A DNA stretch of 50,561 bases, taken from Candidatus Latescibacterota bacterium (GTDB lineage Bacteria > Latescibacterota > UBA2968 > UBA8231). This document shows positions 2,698 through 42,652 of the stretch, one piece after another (position 1 is the stretch's first letter; every line of letters starts with the position of its first letter). The position numbers were made by a program, and so were the translations under genes. The notes under the pieces were generated by a model, which had not been told where the DNA came from, did no database searches, and was given only the letters and a program-made list of their open reading frames with translations. The stretch spans positions 1 through 50,561 of the forward strand of contig CBDBIJ010000037.1 of NCBI GenBank assembly GCA_965205655.1, given 5' to 3'.

Positions 2698-3051
2698 ATG
2701 GACCTGAAAGGAGTGTTTGAGATGACTAAGCAGAAGAAGGGTGTTCGGGTCGGCCGATTCTCCGCTCGTCGAAAGCAGGAGGCGGTGTTGCGCCTGCTGC
2801 GTGGGGAGGACCTGGAGGTCCTGTCCCGGGAGTTGGGTGTGATGGCAGCCACGCTGAGTGAGTGGCGCGAGCAGTTCCTGGGTGGGGGTGAGTCAGCTCT
2901 GCACAGCCGTACCCGTGATGAGCGGGATGAACAGATCGCCCGCCTGAAAGCGAAGGTGGGGGATCTGACGATGGACAACGAGTTGCTGGAGTCCAAGATC
3001 CATCGCCTGGAGGATGGACTCCCTTTGGCATCCCGGAGGTCGAAGCGATGA
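2698..3051 (+). CDS. IS3-family transposase OrfA (HTH plus coiled coil)
   Basis: 'RFSARRKQEAVLRLLRGEDLEVLSRELGV...LSEWREQFL' HTH and C-terminal coiled coil 'IARLKAKVGDLTMDNELL'. Confidence 0.85.
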   Translation: MDLKGVFEMTKQKKGVRVGRFSARRKQEAVLRLLRGEDLEVLSRELGVMAATLSEWREQFLGGGESALHSRTRDERDEQIARLKAKVGDLTMDNELLESKIHRLEDGLPLASRRSKR

Positions 3052-3956
3052 GCCAGACCCAGTCGCCCTCCAGGAAGCGGCCGTACAGGCTGCAGCGTGT
3101 GTGTCGGGTCTGGCAGTTTCCTCGCTCCACCGTCCACGAGCATCGGCGTCGGGCGGCTCTGCGTCCGGAGGAGCGTCTTGAGCGGAAGAAACGAGGTCCC
3201 CAAGGGCCGTGTACCGACGATGAGCTAGCTGAGAAGATTCGCGAGTTGCTGAAGGCGTCCCCCTTTCACGGGGAAGGCTACCGCAAGATGTGGGCCCAGC
3301 TGCGGGCGCAGGACATCCGCACCTCGAAGGAACGCGTACGCCGTGTGATGCGCGAGCACGGCCTGCAGGTGCCGCAACGCGCCGGCCAGCCAAGGGGCCC
3401 GCAAGCACACGACGGGACGATCACCACCGATCGACCAGACCAGATGTGGGGAACCGACTTGACCACCACCGTGACCACCGGCGAAGGCACAGCTACGGTC
3501 TTCGTGGCTGTCGACCACTGCAGCTCGGAGTGCATCGGCATTCATGCAGCGGCCACAGGCGACCGTTTCGAGGCCCTGGAGCCGATCCACCAGGGAGTCC
3601 GCGAACACTTCGGCGGCGGCGACAAGGGTATCGCCGGGGGGCTGCAGCTGCGCCACGATCATGGCTCTGCGTACATGTCCGACCACTTCCAGAAACAGAT
3701 CGACTTCCTGGGCATCGAGTCGTCGCCCAGCTTCGTGCGTGCCCCGGAGGGCAATGGCTGCTCCGAGCGATTCATCCGCACCCTCAAGGAGAATCTCCTG
3801 TGGGTCCGATACTTTGCCACGGTCGAAGAGCTCCGTCTTGCCCTGCTCGAATTCAAGAGAGTCTACAACGAGAAGTGGCTCCTCGAGCGACACAACTATC
3901 AGACGCCAAACCAGGTGCGCCGGAGCTTCCAGCAGGAGTTGTCCAAGGCGGCCTGA
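3048..3956 (+). CDS. IS3-family transposase OrfB (DDE integrase core)
   Basis: WGTDLT...HDHGSAY...NGCSERFIRTLKE DDE motifs; ATGA overlap with orfA. Confidence 0.9.
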   Translation: MSQTQSPSRKRPYRLQRVCRVWQFPRSTVHEHRRRAALRPEERLERKKRGPQGPCTDDELAEKIRELLKASPFHGEGYRKMWAQLRAQDIRTSKERVRRVMREHGLQVPQRAGQPRGPQAHDGTITTDRPDQMWGTDLTTTVTTGEGTATVFVAVDHCSSECIGIHAAATGDRFEALEPIHQGVREHFGGGDKGIAGGLQLRHDHGSAYMSDHFQKQIDFLGIESSPSFVRAPEGNGCSERFIRTLKENLLWVRYFATVEELRLALLEFKRVYNEKWLLERHNYQTPNQVRRSFQQELSKAA

Positions 3957-6938: not shown

Positions 6939-8098
6939 TAGTGCTCTGTTAAAGAGTCGGCATTGAGTTTTGGACTTTGGTCAGCTTGGAGTTGTCCGTG
7001 TTCTTGTTTCGCCATCTCAGGTACTCCTGGATGCGCTGGCCGACTTCTCGATGATCGTTGGGATCGCTGTTTTTGATGACGAAATAATGGGCTGCCGTGA
7101 GGTGACATTCGAGCCGATTCATCCATGACGCGTTGGTGGCGGTGAAGACCGGCGAGACCTGGTTTCGTCTGCACCACTGCAGGATCGGCGGTGTCTTGTG
7201 CGTCGACAGATTGTCCATGACGACGTAGATCCGTTTCGCCTTGGGATAGCGCAGCCGAATGGCCTTGAGAAAATCGAGTACGACCGATGCGTGCTTCTTT
7301 GGTTTGTGATGCATCCACAGGATGTCCTCATGGACGTTATAGGCTCCGAAGAAATAGCTGACGCCGCCGTGGCGGCTGTAGGTTGCCCGATGCCGGACCG
7401 GGCGCTTCTGCGGGGCCCAGGAAGCGCCGGCATGCGGCTTGATCTGGACCGGTCCCAGTTCGTCGAAGCAGACTACGACCGTGCCTTTCGGCGCCCGCTT
7501 GTAGAGTCGGTTGATGCGTTTTTTTTAGAGGCAAACTCCGGGTCCTTGGATTCCTTCCAGGTGCGCGTCCGTTGATAGGTCACCTTATGCTGATCCAGGA
7601 TTTTCCCGATGGTCACATGCGAGACCTCAGGAATCATCTGCCGTCCCACCAGGCAGTCGGTCAGCTTGCGCAACGACCACTGATTGAACGGCTGACCGAA
7701 CGCACGGGGAGGCATCTTGGCGATTTCCACCACCACGGATTCGTCTTCCGGCGTCAACTTCGAAGGACGCCCCGGACGTGCCCGCGTGCGCAACGCCGTC
7801 AATCCCCCTTCGTTGTATTGGCGAATCAACTGGCGAACGTACTCCTCGTGCAGATGCAGCGTATCCGAAATCTCTTGGACCCGCATTCCCTGGACGCTGA
7901 ACGAGATCAACTGCCCACGGCGCATCTGCACGGCGCTGCGAGGCCGCTTCAGCCATCGCACCAGTTCCTTCGACTCCGCCACGTTCGGTGAACGAGCATG
8001 AAGACACATAGCTTGACCCTCCTGAAGAATTCGCCATATATCTCCATGATACCACGACTTACGACAAAGTACAAGCTCCATTTCTTAACGGAGAACTA
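6939..8098 (-). mobile_element. IS630-family insertion sequence A
   Basis: TA-flanked inverted ends TAGTGCTCTGTTAAAGA and TAGTTCTCCGTTAAGAA; two-ORF transposase. Confidence 0.85.
6949..8009 (-). CDS. IS630 transposase expressed via -1 frameshift at an A8 run (T run at 7519-7526 on the + strand)
   Basis: OrfA carries HTH domains and '...TWKESKDPEFASKK'. The -1 frame continues KRINRLY...VVCFDELGP...VMDNLSTHK...ASWMNRLE (DDE motifs). Confidence 0.8.
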
Positions 8099-9277
8099 TT
8101 GTATTGTCGTATAAATAACTTGTACTAGTACAGTTGTGTGGTTAAGTTTCATCCAGACCTATTCCACAAACAAGGAACGGAGGAAACTCATGCCACGCGG
8201 ACGCTTTCTTCCACCTCTCGAAATGACGGGGCAAACTCGGCAGCAATTGGAATCAATGGCCAAATCTCGATCCCTGCCGCACGGTTTGGTGCGACGCGCC
8301 GAGATCGTGTTGCTGGCCGCCGAGGGATGGCCCAACAAGGCCATCGGCGAAGCTGTGGGGCTGTCACAAGTGACCGTCGGCAAGTGGCGTCGTCGCTTCG
8401 TGGAAAACGGCCTCAACGGGTTGTACGACGAGCTGCGACCCGGTGCGCCCCGATCGATCTCGGACGAACAAGTGGCCGAGGTGGTATACAAGACACTGAA
8501 GACCAAGCCGGAGGACAAAACCCAGTGGACGGTGCGCTCCATGGGCGAGGAGACCGGCCTGACCAAGGACGCGGTCCATCGCATCTGGCGCACATTCGGC
8601 TTACAGCCGCACCGGACCCAGAATTTCAAGCTGTCCACTGATCCTTTCTTCGTGGATAAGGTGCGCGATGTTGTGGGCTTGTATCTCAACCCGCCCGACC
8701 ATGCCGTCGTCCTGTGCGTTGACGAGAAGAGCCAAGTGCAGGCTCTGGAGCGCAGTCAGCCGTTGCTGCCGCTGGGCCTGGGCTACGCGGAGGGCGTCAC
8801 CCACGACTACAAGCGACACGGCACCACAACGCTGTTTGCCGCTCTGGATGTGGCCACCGGTGAAGTCCTGACTCAGTGCAAGCCTCGTCATCGCCATCAG
8901 GAGTTTTTGCAGTTCCTACGCCATATCGACGCGAACGTGCCTGCGGATCTGGACGTTCACTTGATCGTCGACAACTACGGCACCCACAAGTACGCCAGCG
9001 TCAAGAAGTGGTTGGCCAGCCGGCCCCGATTCCACCTCCACTTTACTCCGACCTACGCCTCGTGGCTCAACCAGGTCGAGATCTGGTTCAACATCATCAC
9101 GCGGCGAGCCATCCGGCGTGGCTCATTCCGCAAGGTCAAAGAGCTCATTCAGAGGATCGAGCGCTACACCGACAAATGGAACGCCAACGCCCATCCCTTT
9201 GGGTGGACGGCCACGGCCGACTCGATCCTTGCCAAGGTCAAACGAATATGTCACTGTATTTCTGCGACGGAACACTA
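8097..9277 (+). mobile_element. IS630-family insertion sequence B
   Basis: Ends TATTGTATTGTCGTATAAATA and TAGTGTTCCGTCGCAGAAATA (reverse complement) form imperfect IRs flanked by TA. Confidence 0.85.
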
Positions 9278-9278
9278 G
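8190..9278 (+). CDS. IS630-family transposase (single ORF)
   Basis: [22 protein letters not shown] and ASWLNQVE motifs; stop codon lies in the terminal CTAG. Confidence 0.92.
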
Positions 9279-18846: not shown

Positions 18847-20208
18847 CTACAGGATATATCGGCTCAGGTCTTCGTCCTCGAGGATGCTCTGGATTTTCTC
18901 TCTCACGTACTGCTTGGTGATGCGGATCGTCTTTTCTTCCAGCGACGGCGCCTCGAAGAGGATCTCGTCCAGCAGGGTGGACATGACCGTGTGCAGTCTG
19001 CGGGCGCCGATGTTTTCCGTACTCTCGTTTACCTGGAAGGTAAATTTCGCCGTCTCCCGCACTGCCTCCGGCGTGAACGACAGCGACACACCCTCACTTT
19101 GCAGCATGGCGGTGTACTGCTTGACGAGGGCGCTCTTCGGCCGCGTCAGTATCTCGACGAATTCGTCGACGCCGAGGCTGTCGAGCTCGACCCGAATCGG
19201 AAAACGCCCCTGGAGCTCGGGAATGAGATCGGCTGGCTTGGCTGCGTGAAAGGCGCCGGCGGCGATGAAGAGCACGTGGTCGGTGTTTACGAGACCGTAC
19301 TTCGTCGTCACCGTAGAGCCCTCGATGATTGGCAGCAAATCGCGCTGAACCCCTTCCCGCGAGATATCCGGGCCTGTCTTGGTGTGACTGGCGGCGACTT
19401 TGTCGACCTCGTCGAGAAAGACGATCCCCGACTGCTCAACTCGGTTGATCGCCTCTGTCACGGCGCGATCCATGTCGATGAGCTTTTGCGTTTCCTGCTG
19501 CACCAGCAGACGCCTGGCTTCGCCGAGCAGCAGTTTCTTCGTTTGTGTCGATTGCTGCGACATACCGGCGACGATCTCCTGGATGTTGATGCTCATCTCT
19601 TCGAGGTTGGCGACCGGCGAAAACACTTCCACCACCGGTGGCCGCTCCCGCGGCACATCCATCTCCACCTGTCGCCCTTCCAGCTCGCCGGCGCGCAGCT
19701 GCTCGCGCATGCGGCGGCGCACTTCCTCAGCCGTGGCGATCGACGGACCGCTCCCTTTCGGTGTCGGCGCTACCGGCGCTGCCTCTTGGGGCTGTGGAGC
19801 CCCGAGCAGATCGAACAGGCGATCCTCAGCCAGCGACTCCGCCTTTTTCTCGACTGCCTTGGCGTGCTCCTGCTTCACCATGTTGACGCCCAGATCGGTG
19901 AGGTCCCGTATGATCGCCTCTACGTCTCGTCCGACGTAGCCCACCTCGGTGAATTTCGACGCCTCCACCTTGATGAACGGGGCATTGGCGAGATCGGCAA
20001 GGCGGCGGGCTATTTCGGTCTTTCCCACGCCCGTTGGACCGATCATGATGATGTTGTTGGGAATGATCTCCTCCCGCAGCTCGCCCGCAACCTGTTGTCG
20101 CCGCCAGCGGTTGCGCAGGGCAATTGCCACGGCGCGTTTGGCCTTGTCCTGACCGACGATGTGTCGATGCAGCTCTTTGACGATCTGAGAAGGCGTGAGC
20201 TCCTTCAT
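18847..20208 (-). CDS. hslU: ATP-dependent protease ATPase subunit HslU
   Basis: [48 protein letters not shown]-terminal DLSRYIL. Confidence 0.97.
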
Positions 20209-20741
20209 AGCTCCACGATCTGAATGTCTGAATTGGTGTAAATACAGAGGTCGGCGGTAATCTGCAGTGAGCGTTTGACGATTTCGGCGGCGCCGAGCTT
20301 TGATCCGTCCACGTAGGCTCGCGCCGCCGCCGTGGCGTAGGCCGATCCCGAGCCGATGCTGATGATGTCGTCGTCGGGTGCCAGCAGGTCCCCTTCTCCG
20401 GAGATGAGTAGCGAGCGCTCGCCGTCCATGGCGGCGATCATCGCCTCGAGCCGGCGCAGCATGCGGTCGGTTCGCCAGTCGCGCGCCAGTTCGTGGGCGG
20501 CTCGATCGAGTTGCCCGCTGTACTCCTCGAGGCGCGACTCGAAGTGATCGAGTAACGCCAGCGCATCGGCCGTGCCGCCGGCAAATCCGACCAGGACGGA
20601 ATCGTTGTAGAGCTTGCGGATCTTTGTCGTGCGATGTTTGAGTACGACCTCGCCCAGCGTAATCTGTCCGTCGCCGCCCATCACCACCTTCCCCTTGCGG
20701 CGAACCCCCAGAATGGTTGTGCCGTGCGTCCGTGCTTTCAT
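20205..20741 (-). CDS. hslV: ATP-dependent protease peptidase subunit HslV
   Basis: HGTTILGV (Thr nucleophile), [22 protein letters not shown]. Confidence 0.97.
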
Positions 20742-21799
20742 AGAGCCCGGGGATGTGCCTGGGAGTATCCGCGTTGCAACGACTCGATTGTCGCATCGCG
20801 ACGGTGCGACACTGGAGCGGGAGTCTGCCGGCCCAGCAGCGTTCGCACTGCCTCGGAGTCGGCGCCGGCATCCAGGAGGTGATCGGCGAAAGCCTGGCGC
20901 AGCGCCTGCGGCCCTGAGCCGCCGGGTCTCCCAGCCGGCGTCGCCACCTCCTCTTCGGCCTCGTCCGCAGCCCGTCTGAGATATCGCTCTACGATGCGCT
21001 GCACCGAGCGCCGATGGAGTCGGCGGCCCTCGGTGTTGACGAACAGGGCACCGGCGTCGATCTGGCCGATCTGTCTGCCGACCAGCAGATCGGCTCGCGA
21101 GTGGAGGTAGGCCTTCAGAGCTTGCACGGCCGGTGGGCCGATCGGCACGGCACGCGCGCCTTTTTTACTGCTCACGTTGACGATCCCTTCGTCGAGAGCC
21201 GAAAGTGCGGACAGGTTCAGCTCTACGACCTCTTCGAGCCGCACCCCGCAGCTGTAGAATACCTCCAGAATGGCGCGGTCTCGCCTGCCCGCGAAGTCAT
21301 CACCATCAGCGCCATCGAGAGCCGCCTCCACCTGCGCGCGTTCGAGAGCCGGGGTTCGTGTCCCCGTCGTCGTCGGCGACGCCCTCAGCTCGCCAGCCGG
21401 ATTCCGCGGCAGCAGACCGAGCCTGCACAGAAAACGGCAGAACCTTCTCAGCGCCGCCATCTTTCTCGCCACTGTCGCCGGTCGCAGGCCCCGTCTTCTC
21501 AGGTTTTCGTCGAACTGGGCGACGATATCGGCCTCGATGCATGCCACGGTGGGTAAACCGTCGCGTATCCGCGGGTGAAGAAAAAGGGCGAACTGCTGCA
21601 GGTCGCTGCAGTACGCCGCGATCGTTCGGGCGGCGTTGTTCGTGCGCTCGAGGGACCCGGCGAATCGATCGATCGCCTCCTCGACGCTTGAATTCTCGCG
21701 CAAGTCCGCCGGGCGCTGTGCCGACAGCGTAAATGCGGATGGGTTTTCAGGGCTGGACGGAGGGGTGGTGTACGGTGAGACCGATCGTCGCCGACTCAC
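20738..21799 (-). CDS. xerC: XerC-like tyrosine recombinase with degenerate active site
   Basis: Core-binding domain, [15 protein letters not shown] and C-terminal Y..AHPRA; located between topA and hslV. HxxR reads QALR and the H/Y box reads [17 protein letters not shown] start overlaps the topA stop. Confidence 0.8.
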
Positions 21800-24066
21800 G
21801 CTGCCTGCGTGTTCTCGAACCGGGTCTCGCACACCTTGCAGTACATCGACGGCGTGCCGGTACGCGAGGCGCGCTCGTATAACATCGGAGCCTCGCAGTG
21901 CGGGCAGACTTGCTCCACCGGCTTGTCCCAGCTGGCGAACTTGCAGTCCGGGTACTGGTTGCAGCCGTAGAATACCTTGCCCTTGCGCGACTGCTTCTCC
22001 ACCAGGGTCCCGGAGCAATTCTCCTCGGGGCAGGCGATGCCCAGAGAAAGAGGCTTGACGTTGCGGCAGTTCGGATAGCCGCTGCAGGCCAGAAAGCGAC
22101 CGTAGCGGCCGGTCTTGACGACCATGGGCGATTCGCACAAATCGCACACTTCATCGGTCTCCATCTGTTCCTGGTCCTGCTCGAGCGGCTTCGTGTTCTT
22201 GCACTGCGGGTACCCGGGGCAGGCCAGAAAGCGTCCGTTGCGGCCCCATTTGACAACCATGTTGCGCCCGCACTCCTCGCACACGACGCTGGTCTCTTCC
22301 TGCATGGCCTTCTTCAGTTCCTTGCGCCGATCGTTCGCGTCCTTGAGCGAATCCTTCCACCCTCCGTAGAACTGCCGCACCGTCTCGACCCAGTTCTCCT
22401 TGCCCTCCTCGATGCGGTCGAGCTCGTCTTCCATCCGCGCCGTAAATTCGACGTCGAATATGTTCGGAAAGGTGGCAACCAGAAATTTGTTGACCGTCTG
22501 GCCGCGCTCGGTCGCTGCGAAGGCGCGCCCGTCGATCTTCTCGACGTACTGGCGATCCTGCAGGGTGCTGATGATCTGGGCGTAGGTGCTGGGGCGGCCG
22601 ATCCCCTTGGCCTCCAGTTCCTTGACGAGCGAGGCTTCCGAATATCGCGCCGGCGGCTTTGTGAAGTGCTGCTCGGGCAGCAGCTCGCTCAGCTGAATGG
22701 CCTGCCCGGCCTCGATATTCGGCGGAATGGCAACTATCTCCTCCTCTTCCTCGTCTTCCTTTTCCTTGCTCTCGGTGTAGAGCAGGCTAAAGCCGGGGAA
22801 CTTCGTGGACGAACCTGTCGCCCTCAACAGGTAGTCGCCTGCCTCTATATTCACGCTGGTGACGTTGAGCACGTGCGGGTTCATCTGCGAAGCCACGAAC
22901 CGTTTCCACACGAGCTCGTAGAGCTTTGCCTGATCGGCGCTCAGCCGCTTCGCCATCTCCTCCGGGTGAAGCCCTACGGCCGTCGGTCGGACGGCCTCAT
23001 GAGCATCCTGGGCGCCCCGCCTCGTTTTGTAGGCGTTCGGCTTGTCCGGCACGTAGTCGGCGCCGTAGCGCTTCTCGATCTCCTGGCGCACCTCGCCGAT
23101 GGCGTCGTCGGACACCCTCACCGAGTCGGTTCGCATATAGGTGATGAGCCCCTGCGTCTCGCCTTCCACTTCGATCCCCTCGTAGAGCTGCTGCGCCACC
23201 GCCATGGTGCGCTTGACTGAAAACCTCAGTCGCCTGGCGCACTCCTGCTGCAGAGTGCTCGTGATGAAAGGCGGGGACGGCTTGCGGCGCTGTTCGCGAT
23301 GCTTCACCTCCGCGATCTTGAACTCCGCCTCTGTCAGGTCGGCGACGATTTTGTCGGACGTCTCCTCGTTGTCGATGGAGATCTTCTCACCGCGGTGCTC
23401 GAGCAGTCGGGCCTTGAAGGTGGCCGGCTCGATGCCGTTGACCCCCTCGGCATCCCCGCCGCCTTCGCGCCTGAGCAGGGCGTCGAGCGACCAGTACTCA
23501 ACCGGCTCGAAGGCGTTGATCTTGTCGTCCCTCTCGGCGATGATGCGCAGCGCCACCGACTGCACCCGGCCGGCCGACAGACCGGCGTGGATGACCTTCC
23601 ATAGAAGGGGACTGATCTCGTAACCCACGAGCCTGTCCAGAACCCGGCGGGCCTGCTGCGCGTTTACTTTCTGCAGATCGAGGGTCGTGGACTTCGCGAG
23701 CGATTCACGCACAGCCTTCGGAGTGATCTCGTTGAACTGTATTCGCTTGACTTCATTTCGTGGTGAGATGGCGTGGGCCACATGCCAGGCGATCGCCTCA
23801 CCTTCCCGGTCGGGGTCGGTCGCCATGTATATGGTATCCGCACCCTTTGCCGCCTTGCGCAGCTCTGTGAGGATTTTTCCCTTGCCCCGAATCGTCACGT
23901 AGCGGGGCTGGAAATCGTGCTCCACATCGACACCCAGTTCCTTGGGAGGCAAGTCGCGCACGTGACCCATACAGGATTTCACCACGAAATCTTTGCCGAG
24001 GATCTTGTTGATCGTCGTCGCCTTGGCCGGAGATTCGACCACGACGAGTGATTTTCCTTTCGCCAT
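21796..24066 (-). CDS. topA: DNA topoisomerase I with C-terminal zinc ribbons
   Basis: LVVVESPAKA, ATDPDREGEAI, SAGRVQS, GLITYMRTDS; several CxxC ribbons. Confidence 0.98.
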   Translation of the reverse strand: MAKGKSLVVVESPAKATTINKILGKDFVVKSCMGHVRDLPPKELGVDVEHDFQPRYVTIRGKGKILTELRKAAKGADTIYMATDPDREGEAIAWHVAHAISPRNEVKRIQFNEITPKAVRESLAKSTTLDLQKVNAQQARRVLDRLVGYEISPLLWKVIHAGLSAGRVQSVALRIIAERDDKINAFEPVEYWSLDALLRREGGGDAEGVNGIEPATFKARLLEHRGEKISIDNEETSDKIVADLTEAEFKIAEVKHREQRRKPSPPFITSTLQQECARRLRFSVKRTMAVAQQLYEGIEVEGETQGLITYMRTDSVRVSDDAIGEVRQEIEKRYGADYVPDKPNAYKTRRGAQDAHEAVRPTAVGLHPEEMAKRLSADQAKLYELVWKRFVASQMNPHVLNVTSVNIEAGDYLLRATGSSTKFPGFSLLYTESKEKEDEEEEEIVAIPPNIEAGQAIQLSELLPEQHFTKPPARYSEASLVKELEAKGIGRPSTYAQIISTLQDRQYVEKIDGRAFAATERGQTVNKFLVATFPNIFDVEFTARMEDELDRIEEGKENWVETVRQFYGGWKDSLKDANDRRKELKKAMQEETSVVCEECGRNMVVKWGRNGRFLACPGYPQCKNTKPLEQDQEQMETDEVCDLCESPMVVKTGRYGRFLACSGYPNCRNVKPLSLGIACPEENCSGTLVEKQSRKGKVFYGCNQYPDCKFASWDKPVEQVCPHCEAPMLYERASRTGTPSMYCKVCETRFENTQAA

Positions 24067-24287
24067 TACCTGCCTTTGAGGAGCCCGCTCACGGGTTCCT
24101 ATGGTTTCTGTGTGAAACGCCACGGCTCCAGAGTATACACGCGCTGAACACATGTGCACCCTAGAGCCGCAACTTTCCTCAATATAGACATGAGCCCGCT
24201 GCTCCGCAACGAGATGTCGCTTGACACCCGCCCTCCTCTTGGCTTTCGTAGCTGTGCAAAAGGCCAACTATAACAGGGGGTTATGGC

Positions 24288-40192: not shown

Positions 40193-42652
40193 ATGAAGAT
40201 CACCTGCAACTGGCTTCGGGACTACGTCGAGTTCGAGTGGGATTGGCGTGAACTGGTGGATCGACTCACCATGTCCGGTCTCGAGCTCGAAGGCGCGACA
40301 GATCTCGCAGCCAGGTTCGAGGGCGTGGTCGTGGGACGGGTGCTCGAGTGCGGTCCCCATCCCCGGGCAGATCGCCTCTCTGTCTGCCGCGTCGATACTG
40401 GCCGCGATGCCGCTACTACGATAGTCTGCGGCGCCCCGAACGTGACCGCCGGGCAGCTGGTGCCCGTCATTGAGCCGGGCTATCGCCTCCCCGACGGCAC
40501 GCAGATAGACGAGACCACCATCCGCGGCGTCGAGTCAGCCGGAATGATCTGTTCCGAGGTCGAATTGGGACTCGGCGACGACAGCTCCGGAATCCTCGTC
40601 CTTCCCGACACCCATCGAGTCGGTGCCGCCTTCTCCCAGGAGTCGGGAATGGCCGATGTCGTGTTCGACTTCGAGGTCACCCCGAACCGACCCGACTGTC
40701 TCAGTCTCGTGGGCATCGCCCGCGAGGTGAGCGCCCTCAACGGGGCCGAGCTGAGGCCACCTCCGCATACTCTCAACGAGACCGGAGAGCCGGCAGGCTT
40801 GGCGGCCGCCATCGATATCGACGACGCGAACGGGTGTCCGCGCTACGTCGGCCGTCTCATCCGAGGCGTTCGCGTCGGGCCATCCCCTGCCTGGCTGAGC
40901 AACCGCCTCCTCGCCGTCGGTCTGCGCCCCATCAACAACATCGTGGATGCCACCAACTACGTCATGATGGAGTTGGGCCAGCCACTCCACGCCTTTGACT
41001 TCGCTCGCCTTCAGGAGGGACGCATTGTCGTGCGTCGGGCGCGGAAGGGCGAAAGCCTGCGGACGCTGGACGGTACCGAGCGCGAACTCGATGACGATAT
41101 CCTCGTCATCGCCGACGGCCGCCGACCAGTGGCGCTCGCCGGCATCATGGGCGGGGCCGATTCGGAGGTGACAAATGAGACCACCGATATACTGCTCGAA
41201 TCGGCTTTCTTCGCCCCGGCGCTCGTGAGGGCCAATGCGGCCAGGCTCGGCCTTCACACGGAGGCATCCGTGCGCTTTGAGCGCGGCGCCGACTGGGACA
41301 TGCCTCCGGTGGCCAGCGACCGGGCCGCCAGCCTGATCGCCGAGATAGCCGGCGGCGAAGTAGCCCCCGGACGCCTCGACGCCTACCCAACCCCCTTCAG
41401 CGCACCACGATCCCCCTGCGAGTCTCACGACTACAGTCCCTGCTGGGCATCCAAATCGAAGCTGCCGAATGCCACCGAATCCTCATCTCCCTAGGATGCG
41501 AGCTCATCGAGAGTGGCGAGGCCACCTCGCCAGACGATGCGCAAGCATCGTCGAAAGACCCCGCGCCAGCGGGGTCTTCAGCATCGCCAAAAAACACGGC
41601 GTCAGCCGTGTTTTCAGCGCCCAGCTTCCGCCCGGATCTGCAGCGTGAGGCCGATCTCGTCGAAGAGGTTGGCCGCGTGTACGGCTACGACAAAGTGGAG
41701 GGGAGCTGCGGCCTCCGCGGCCCGCTCGTGCAACCCGGCGGCGACGACGACCTGCATCGCGCGGTAAAGCAGCGACTCGTCGGCCTGGGCTTTGACGAAG
41801 TGGTGACGAACAGCATCGTTCAGCGTGACTGGCTCGGCAACGAAAATGGCAGCGACCGCCTCGTGGAGCTGGCCAATCCCCCGAACGAAAATCAATCGGC
41901 TCTGCGCCGGTCTCTCATCCCCGGGCTGCTCGACGTAGCGAGGCGAAACTTCAACCGGAGAGCGGATACCGTCTCCATCTTCGAAGTGGGCAGGCAATTC
42001 TCGCTCCGCGAAAACGGGGAAGTGGCAGAGGGCCTCTCCATCGCCGGGCTCTGGTCCGGATTTCGCAGCGCCTCGACCTGGAGGGCCGAGAAGCAGCGCG
42101 TCGACTATCTCGATCTGAAGGGGGTGTTGGAAGTGTTTCTCGAGGATCTGCAGCCGCGGTTTGTTGCCGACGACGCCCCCAGTTTTCGCCCGGGGCTGTG
42201 CTCGTCGATTCTGGCCGACGAGCACCTGCTCGGGTACGGGGGGAGAGGTCGCTCCGGATCTGGTTGAATCATTTGATCTGCCCAACTCGGTTTATATCTT
42301 TGAGCTTGAATTTGCTGCTCTCGCCCGGGCGTGGGGAGGAGATGTCGGCTTCAAGCCTCTGCCCAAGTTTCCCCCCATCGAGCGCGATCTCGCCGTCATC
42401 GTCGGTCATGGCGTTCCGGCGGCCGAGGTAGTCGACACCATTCGGGCGGTCGAGCCGGAACTCATCGAGGCTATCGATCTCTTTGACGTGTACCGCGGCG
42501 ACGCCATAGCTGCAGATCGCAAGAGCCTTGCTTTCTCCATCCGCCTGCGCTCCTCGCAAGCGACTCTCGAGGACCGGCGTGCGGACGAAATCATGCAACA
42601 GGTACTCTCGCGCCTGAGCTCGGCCTTCGGCGCGAAGCTTCGCGAGGGATGA
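40193..42652 (+). CDS. pheT: Phenylalanine-tRNA ligase beta subunit (two apparent 1-bp homopolymer frameshifts)
   Basis: CGAPN, TPNRPDCLS, NNIVDATNY, RFERG, RPDL..EADLVEEV, FP.I.RDL, LFDVY.G. Frames join with one added C at 41391-41395 and one removed G at 42238-42243. Confidence 0.92.

Follow-up and report, generated by a model that had tools for sequence, protein, structure and literature searches.

A gene at the topA-xerC-hslVU locus of a Candidatus Latescibacterota bacterium encodes a XerC orthologue from which the catalytic tyrosine is missing, and this tyrosine has been lost from XerC at least five times independently within the family to which the host belongs. XerC apparently loses its cutting residue yet stays conserved because a single-subunit enzyme, here termed T, settled with its own site at the chromosome terminus, and it is judged slightly better than an even chance that this single recombinase resolves chromosome dimers while XerC persists beside XerD as a partner that no longer cuts.

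The xerC locus and the missing catalytic residues

The features of the window (the whole stretch of 50,561 nt that was analysed) that concern xerC are given below; residue numbering follows protein P0002, which corresponds to window positions 20741-21691.

18847..20208, minus strand: hslU (ORF, synteny)
20205..20741, minus strand: hslV, downstream neighbour (ORF)
20738..21799, minus strand: xerC orthologue without catalytic Tyr, a pseudo-recombinase (ORF, profile score, alignment, topA synteny in relatives)
20747..20767, minus strand: C-terminal Y-x-x-x-H-P-R tail, helix N (pattern; docks in XerD in E. coli models according to the available part of PMC5052618)
20789..20830, minus strand: His-to-Tyr segment, with R288 at the His/Trp-III and R297 at the nucleophilic Tyr position; the only relaxed part of Tyr-less copies (alignment, dN/dS)
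20897..20908, minus strand: HxxR box reading QALR, His gone and Arg-II present (alignment, codons)
20999..21028, minus strand: helix J region, 10 residues, of which G222, R224, L225, R228 and Q231 are common to Tyr-less and intact family copies (alignment)
21239..21241, minus strand: Arg-I (R151), kept (alignment)
21796..24267, minus strand: topA, upstream neighbour (longest ORF)

The xerC reading frame is open throughout, its GTG overlaps the topA stop codon and its own stop overlaps the hslV ATG, as the original prediction had described; the XerC record of an 83%-identical relative begins 24 codons further in, and the start in the window is putative. Orthology rests on the best match together with the topA-xerC(-hslVU) locus, XerD being a separate gene, and the protein scores 169 bits against the NCBIfam model for XerC (TIGR02224), below its cut-off of 335. 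Alignment with the XerD structure 1A0P and 55 family orthologues places Gln at the HxxR His (Q262, CAG), Arg at His/Trp-III (R288, CGG) and Arg at the nucleophilic Tyr (R297, CGT), and the loss of the tyrosine and of both catalytic histidines that had been read from the window is thereby borne out, as is the retention of Arg-I (R151), Arg-II (R265) and the C-terminal tail. The beta2-beta3 loop Lys (K176/K177) is probably present, in a loop of uncertain alignment, such that the catalytic set R-K-HxxR-H/W-Y reads R, K?, Q, R, R, R. In Cre, the catalytic Tyr is strictly required (PMC2943603). The predicted structure is a two-domain recombinase fold with a C-terminal helix (pLDDT 86; top match XerD 1A0P), in which segment 293-298 is modelled at pLDDT <50.

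The substitutions are no error of the window assembly, since contigs from two other studies cover the XerC segment with 5 differences in 733 bases and 4 in 745 (one further, identical contig may derive from the source sample itself) and the same dead motifs occur in the 83%-identical relative. The original prediction had already dismissed a compensating frameshift, and a frame hiding the Tyr is likewise rejected by the alignment to relatives and by the independent contigs; an intact residue set, which it had suggested looking for in raw reads or close relatives, is present neither in those contigs nor in the 83%-identical relative. A displaced nucleophile, Y309 of the motif GYSQAH, was also considered and rejected: it is modelled in the last helix (302-312), and intact relatives possess both its equivalent and the catalytic Tyr. 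No second intact xerC is present among 11 PF00589 matches in the window's genome. Elsewhere in the window are transposase-like ORFs at 3048-3956, 7473-8081 and 8136-9278, and a repeat near 41,720 on the plus-strand side (minus-strand match) that is present on many contigs and is likely an insertion-sequence end.

Repeated loss of the tyrosine and selection on what remains

The comparison covered one family within Candidatus Latescibacterota, with the three other families of its class as outgroup. XerC was present in 71 of 76 family genomes, and 55 of the 71 proteins were examined, the 16 left out all belonging to genus g13. The Tyr is absent from 26 of the 55, spread over 11 of 17 genera and with differing replacements; XerC is intact in all 41 from the other three families (a count that draws in part on 30 loci, one of them XerD, hence 29 XerC) and in 79 of 80 matches from other phyla, the latter being a biased baseline selected by the HxxR pattern. 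On an RpoB tree of 30 genomes (a quick tree with SH-aLRT support only) the Tyr state requires a minimum of five changes, which are read as losses because outgroup XerC is intact. A single origin in one dead clade is rejected (p-AU 7e-45); the substitutions, which the original prediction had proposed testing for a clade-wide distribution, trace to at least five separate losses and not to one event.

Selection was estimated under the GY model with one ratio per part of the protein, giving values that are rough owing to deep divergence. Outside the His-to-Tyr segment, dN/dS in dead XerC is ∼0.1, like that of intact copies (N-domain 0.10, core 0.10, helix J with HxxR and tail 0.06-0.11; TopA, 0.03-0.10), whereas the segment itself, of just 13-16 codons, gives 0.35-0.64 in dead copies vs 0.01-0.08 in intact ones. 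Columns conserved in intact and outgroup XerC and not in dead copies include both catalytic His, the Tyr and residues of the beta2-beta3 loop. Helix J, which we take by homology to serve in DNA recognition, and the tail are invariant in dead copies, the Y-x-x-x-H-P-R motif being found in all 26 Tyr-less proteins (25 by pattern, that of G001 by eye). The dN/dS values by part, together with the columns lost only in dead copies, show that it is catalysis that has been released, and what is retained matches DNA binding plus the tail that docks into XerD in E. coli models (PMC5052618, in the part available).

This pattern refutes neutral decay. That operon coupling alone keeps a decaying or misassembled ORF has next to no probability in our estimation, given dN/dS ∼0.1, stops in none of 25 full-length dead copies, the invariant helix J and tail, and the confirmation of the sequence by contigs of other studies. 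In its favour are the higher dN/dS of XerC in g16 (0.22) and the two g10 genomes, G009 (90% complete) and G022 (86%), in which xerC was not found with the query used and T was, so that outright loss may occur. The retained pseudo-recombinase inferred from the window is supported: such proteins are widespread in the family and under purifying selection, for which the original prediction had proposed testing the DNA-binding domain, and the genome has XerD and no second intact xerC.

A third tyrosine recombinase at the terminus

T is a third tyrosine recombinase, single-copy in 60 of 75 family genomes and absent from all 56 others. Its catalytic set is complete in 38 of 38 proteins, its dN/dS is 0.04-0.06, and its descent is broadly vertical, with a tree that shares six of eight supported splits with RpoB and conflicts in one. 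At most loci examined T is flanked by leuS and mutL (in G010 it is reversed with respect to mutL). This slot is situated within 0.4-3.3% of the point opposite dnaA in all 10 single-contig genomes (8 with T, 2 with a Cre-like gene), the terminus being judged by that position. T scores far under the cut-offs of known families (XerS, 70 of 267 bits; XerA, 101 of 220 bits), no XerH structure is among the 10 PDB matches listed for it, and no close plasmid or phage relative was found, the best being ∼30% identical.

Within 500 bp upstream of T in 33 of 38 cases is a 28-bp palindrome of 11-6-11 architecture, ACTAACGATAA-N6-TTATCGTTAGT, with the spacer TGCCTG in 16; the pattern was found in 56 of 75 family genomes vs 2 of 56 others. 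It presumably resembles loxP-type sites. Further copies lie well away from the terminus, reaching 11 in a single genome (for example L352 and L353 in G065, and L351 in G013); in G065, palindrome pairs 158 bp apart at three places may represent a small mobile element. In the window's genome, a T-type left arm joined to a XerD-like right arm (G000:C58:115328-115355) adjoins transposase-like ORFs.

Four genomes (G015, G042, G043 and G017) carry in the T slot a Cre-like gene (E 2e-19 to Cre) with a different palindrome. This gene belongs to a scattered multi-copy family (L372-L386) with up to nine matches per genome, some members of which, found in another family, are preceded by a perfect palindrome of their own; the terminus copies of g16 and G017 share 64% identity and may have been captured separately. 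The 15 genomes without T comprise these four, eight without mutL, two with mutL at a contig end and one with mutL elsewhere.

T (19) or the Cre-like gene (4) accompanies dead XerC in 23 of 26 genomes, that is, in every one where the region is assembled; the other three, including the window's genome, also have no mutL. T permits the loss of the Tyr and does not force it, since in genus g13 T is present in 29 of 31 genomes and all 13 XerC proteins examined are intact. Searches of the window's own genome recovered neither T nor its palindrome nor dif; the region there falls in an assembly gap (contig C98 ends within leuS, and mutL is absent), and the connection of T to that genome consequently rests on relatives only.

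XerCD-type sites around the slot

In the outgroups one strong dif occurs in each 20-kb window, with no third recombinase beside it (8 dif windows). Family genomes have up to six XerCD-type sites, always with the XerD arm inward toward the slot: matches within 50 kb of the slot are convergent in 35 of 35 cases over 10 genomes, and of 25 exact matches 23 are situated within 30 kb, counts to be read with the site matrix having been built from the same sites, kin not being independent and the g13 sites being orthologous among themselves. Both sites of G017 lie on one side of the palindrome, no site above threshold is found near T in G009, G005, G019 and G084, and a search of the window's own genome for dif gave nothing convincing. 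In 16 genomes with dead XerC the sites keep asymmetric arms of XerC type. A symmetric dif used by XerD only was considered and set aside; such sites occur in g16 and at a few other places, and most sites in dead-XerC genomes keep the asymmetric arm.

Several sites lie just upstream of mutL (G046, G048 and g13) and leuS, at the starts of these genes, and XerC, perhaps with XerD, might have become a transcriptional or architectural DNA-binding factor; a study on RecA-independent pyocin expression in xerC-deleted Pseudomonas may offer a parallel. This reading is very doubtful, however, because site orientation follows the terminus rather than the gene, the sites cluster within 30 kb, and a place between genes is simply where a site can be accommodated. 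The repurposed regulator that the original prediction had offered as one option finds no direct support. Its other option, in which XerC has a structural role at dif and dimer resolution is completed by XerD or a resolvase, came close; a T with its own site at the terminus and the convergent dif set were invisible from the window.

Proposed mechanism and the role of XerD

The preferred reading begins with a family ancestor that would have captured T with its palindromic 11-6-11 site between leuS and mutL. T, or its Cre-like replacement in four genomes, would resolve chromosome dimers at its palindrome, making strand exchange by XerC dispensable, and the catalytic residues were then lost repeatedly. 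XerC would be retained since it may still bind its own arm of the dif-type sites, now multiple and inward-pointing, and its conserved tail may dock into XerD and stabilise it there. XerC-XerD complexes would then probably stop FtsK or SMC at set positions around the resolution site, or offer them a handle there, which is the weakest step, and lost XerC cutting may also avert inversions or deletions between sites. SMC was not found in the window's genome (84% complete) and is present in four of four family genomes tested. The available parts of the literature offer precedents: in E. coli, cleavage-dead XerC/XerD still halt FtsK, and XerC raises the affinity of XerD, the pair binding far tighter than XerD alone (PMC2800217); Cre-loxP can replace XerCD-dif (PMC2800217, PMC2731167); and one enzyme alone resolves dimers in the XerS (PMC1914069) and XerL (PMC9765430) systems.

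The behaviour of XerD counts against this transfer of function to T. Its Tyr is kept in 46 of 47 proteins and its His-Tyr segment has a dN/dS of 0.04-0.06, including where XerC is dead (the g13 value of 1.000 looks unconverged and was left out), and a pure roadblock needs neither. XerCD-dif moreover halted FtsK from both sides in vitro (PMC2800217, available part), and two-sided stopping would also hinder access to a central site. Besides its one xerC, the window's genome encodes a XerD with Tyr, a truncated second XerD paralogue, FtsK gamma and RuvC. Its main XerD (G000:C101:17208-18251, L001) has an insertion of ∼30 residues that separates the Tyr helix from the C-terminal HPR tail; the paralogue (G000:C95:7240-8310, L002), 56% identical to it, has Asn at the HxxR His, keeps the Tyr and is missing the C-terminal helix. 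The HPR tail is lost in several family XerD proteins (G005, G009, G013 and G022), and in G007 (78% complete) XerC and XerD (L111) are both without Tyr while T is intact. An integrase gene at G000:C100:6999-8830 is in pieces ∼1.3 kb apart and is possibly interrupted by an insertion.

Since transfer to T leaves the retention of the XerD Tyr unexplained, two alternatives stay alive. The first, which we consider unlikely, holds that FtsK-activated XerD, switched on by the tail of dead XerC, makes the first exchange at the dif-type sites and RuvC or replication resolves the Holliday junction, T being a passenger in a dif-flanked module. It is in keeping with the conserved XerD Tyr and segment and with the presence of FtsK gamma and RuvC in the genome of the window; in E. 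coli it is XerD that exchanges strands first (PMC3130261), XerD activation requires the XerC tail (PMC5052618) and CTXphi provides a single-exchange precedent (PMC3442271), the last two sources being available in part. It leaves unexplained the strong conservation and broadly vertical descent of T, its replacement in the slot by a Cre-like enzyme unrelated to it and the confinement of losses to one family; furthermore, only 6 of 47 XerD proteins have all six canonical residues, the Lys being mostly Arg, Arg-I being Thr in two and the Tyr gone in one, and Cre K201R has just low activity in vivo (PMC2943603).

The second alternative is more improbable still. A junction formed by XerD at a flanking dif-type site, with FtsK setting the time, would branch migrate between the sister copies over 30-1200 bp until it reached the palindrome, where T or the Cre-like enzyme would perform the second exchange in place of XerC. 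Such a relay would account for a dead yet retained XerC, the XerD Tyr, the interchangeability of T, the tight linkage of both site types and the XerD arms facing the palindrome, but no precedent was found in the literature searched, T could recombine alone with its full active site and symmetric site, and the four genomes noted above have no XerCD site above threshold near T. A broader formulation, in which XerD armed by dead XerC acts under FtsK timing at the inward dif sites and an interchangeable single recombinase of lox type at the centre completes or performs the crossover, the XerCD pair being a polar trap or relay round the captured resolvase, is put forward tentatively and as rather unlikely.

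If the preferred reading holds, with T resolving dimers and XerC not cutting, a transition from XerCD, with its two subunits, to a single recombinase has been caught midway, with intermediates in living lineages, and XerC has roles besides cutting. The naturally dead XerC proteins, convergent sites and natural Cre-like enzyme would open what Xer proteins do apart from catalysis (stopping FtsK, unloading SMC and activating XerD) to direct tests in E. coli, and T with its 28-bp site is a candidate new recombinase/site pair.

Comparison with known systems

Already known, from the available parts of the reports concerned, are single-recombinase systems, a degenerate recombinase that accompanies XerS, and dif modules (PMC12907356). 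A literature search, in which subscription journals were mostly uncovered, returned no report of Latescibacterota Xer, of a naturally dead XerC orthologue, of a convergent dif set or of a natural Cre-like terminus resolvase; the available text of the 2009 paper (of PMC2800217/PMC2731167) describes natural Cre-type terminus cases in proteobacteria as not evidenced.

The family shares with XerCD/dif of E. coli (CodV/RipX in Bacillus) the orthologous fold, the locus, FtsK gamma and 11-6-11 sites with a TTATGTAAA XerD arm, and differs in its Tyr-less XerC, in its XerD with Lys often replaced by Arg, and in having, instead of a single dif, several convergent sites whose spacers vary. T is like XerS/difSL, XerH/difH and XerL (PMC1914069, PMC2731167, PMC9765430, in the parts available) in consisting of one gene with a site just upstream at the terminus, but those lineages are described there without XerC/XerD orthologues, whereas the present family keeps both, and T falls below the family cut-offs of XerS and XerA. 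Streptococcal and lactococcal YnbA ('XerD') beside XerS is, like dead XerC, a degenerate recombinase conserved with a single-recombinase system; according to the available part of that report YnbA has no C-terminus, is nearer to phage integrases and does not bind difSL (PMC1914069), in contrast to the family XerC, which is a true orthologue with its tail kept and site arms that persist. The Cre/loxP system engineered in place of dif in E. coli (PMC2800217, PMC2731167, available parts) likewise puts a Cre-family enzyme and its palindromic site at the terminus, an arrangement that here is natural and found in four genomes. Acinetobacter pdif and chromosomal dif modules, as far as described in the available text of PMC12907356, also place genes between inverted dif-type sites, whereas the sites here bracket the housekeeping genes mutL and leuS, all point toward one centre and accompany a dead XerC. 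Finally, XerD as an SMC unloader in Bacillus (Karaboja 2021, available part) is another non-recombining Xer role at the terminus, although that system concerns XerD.
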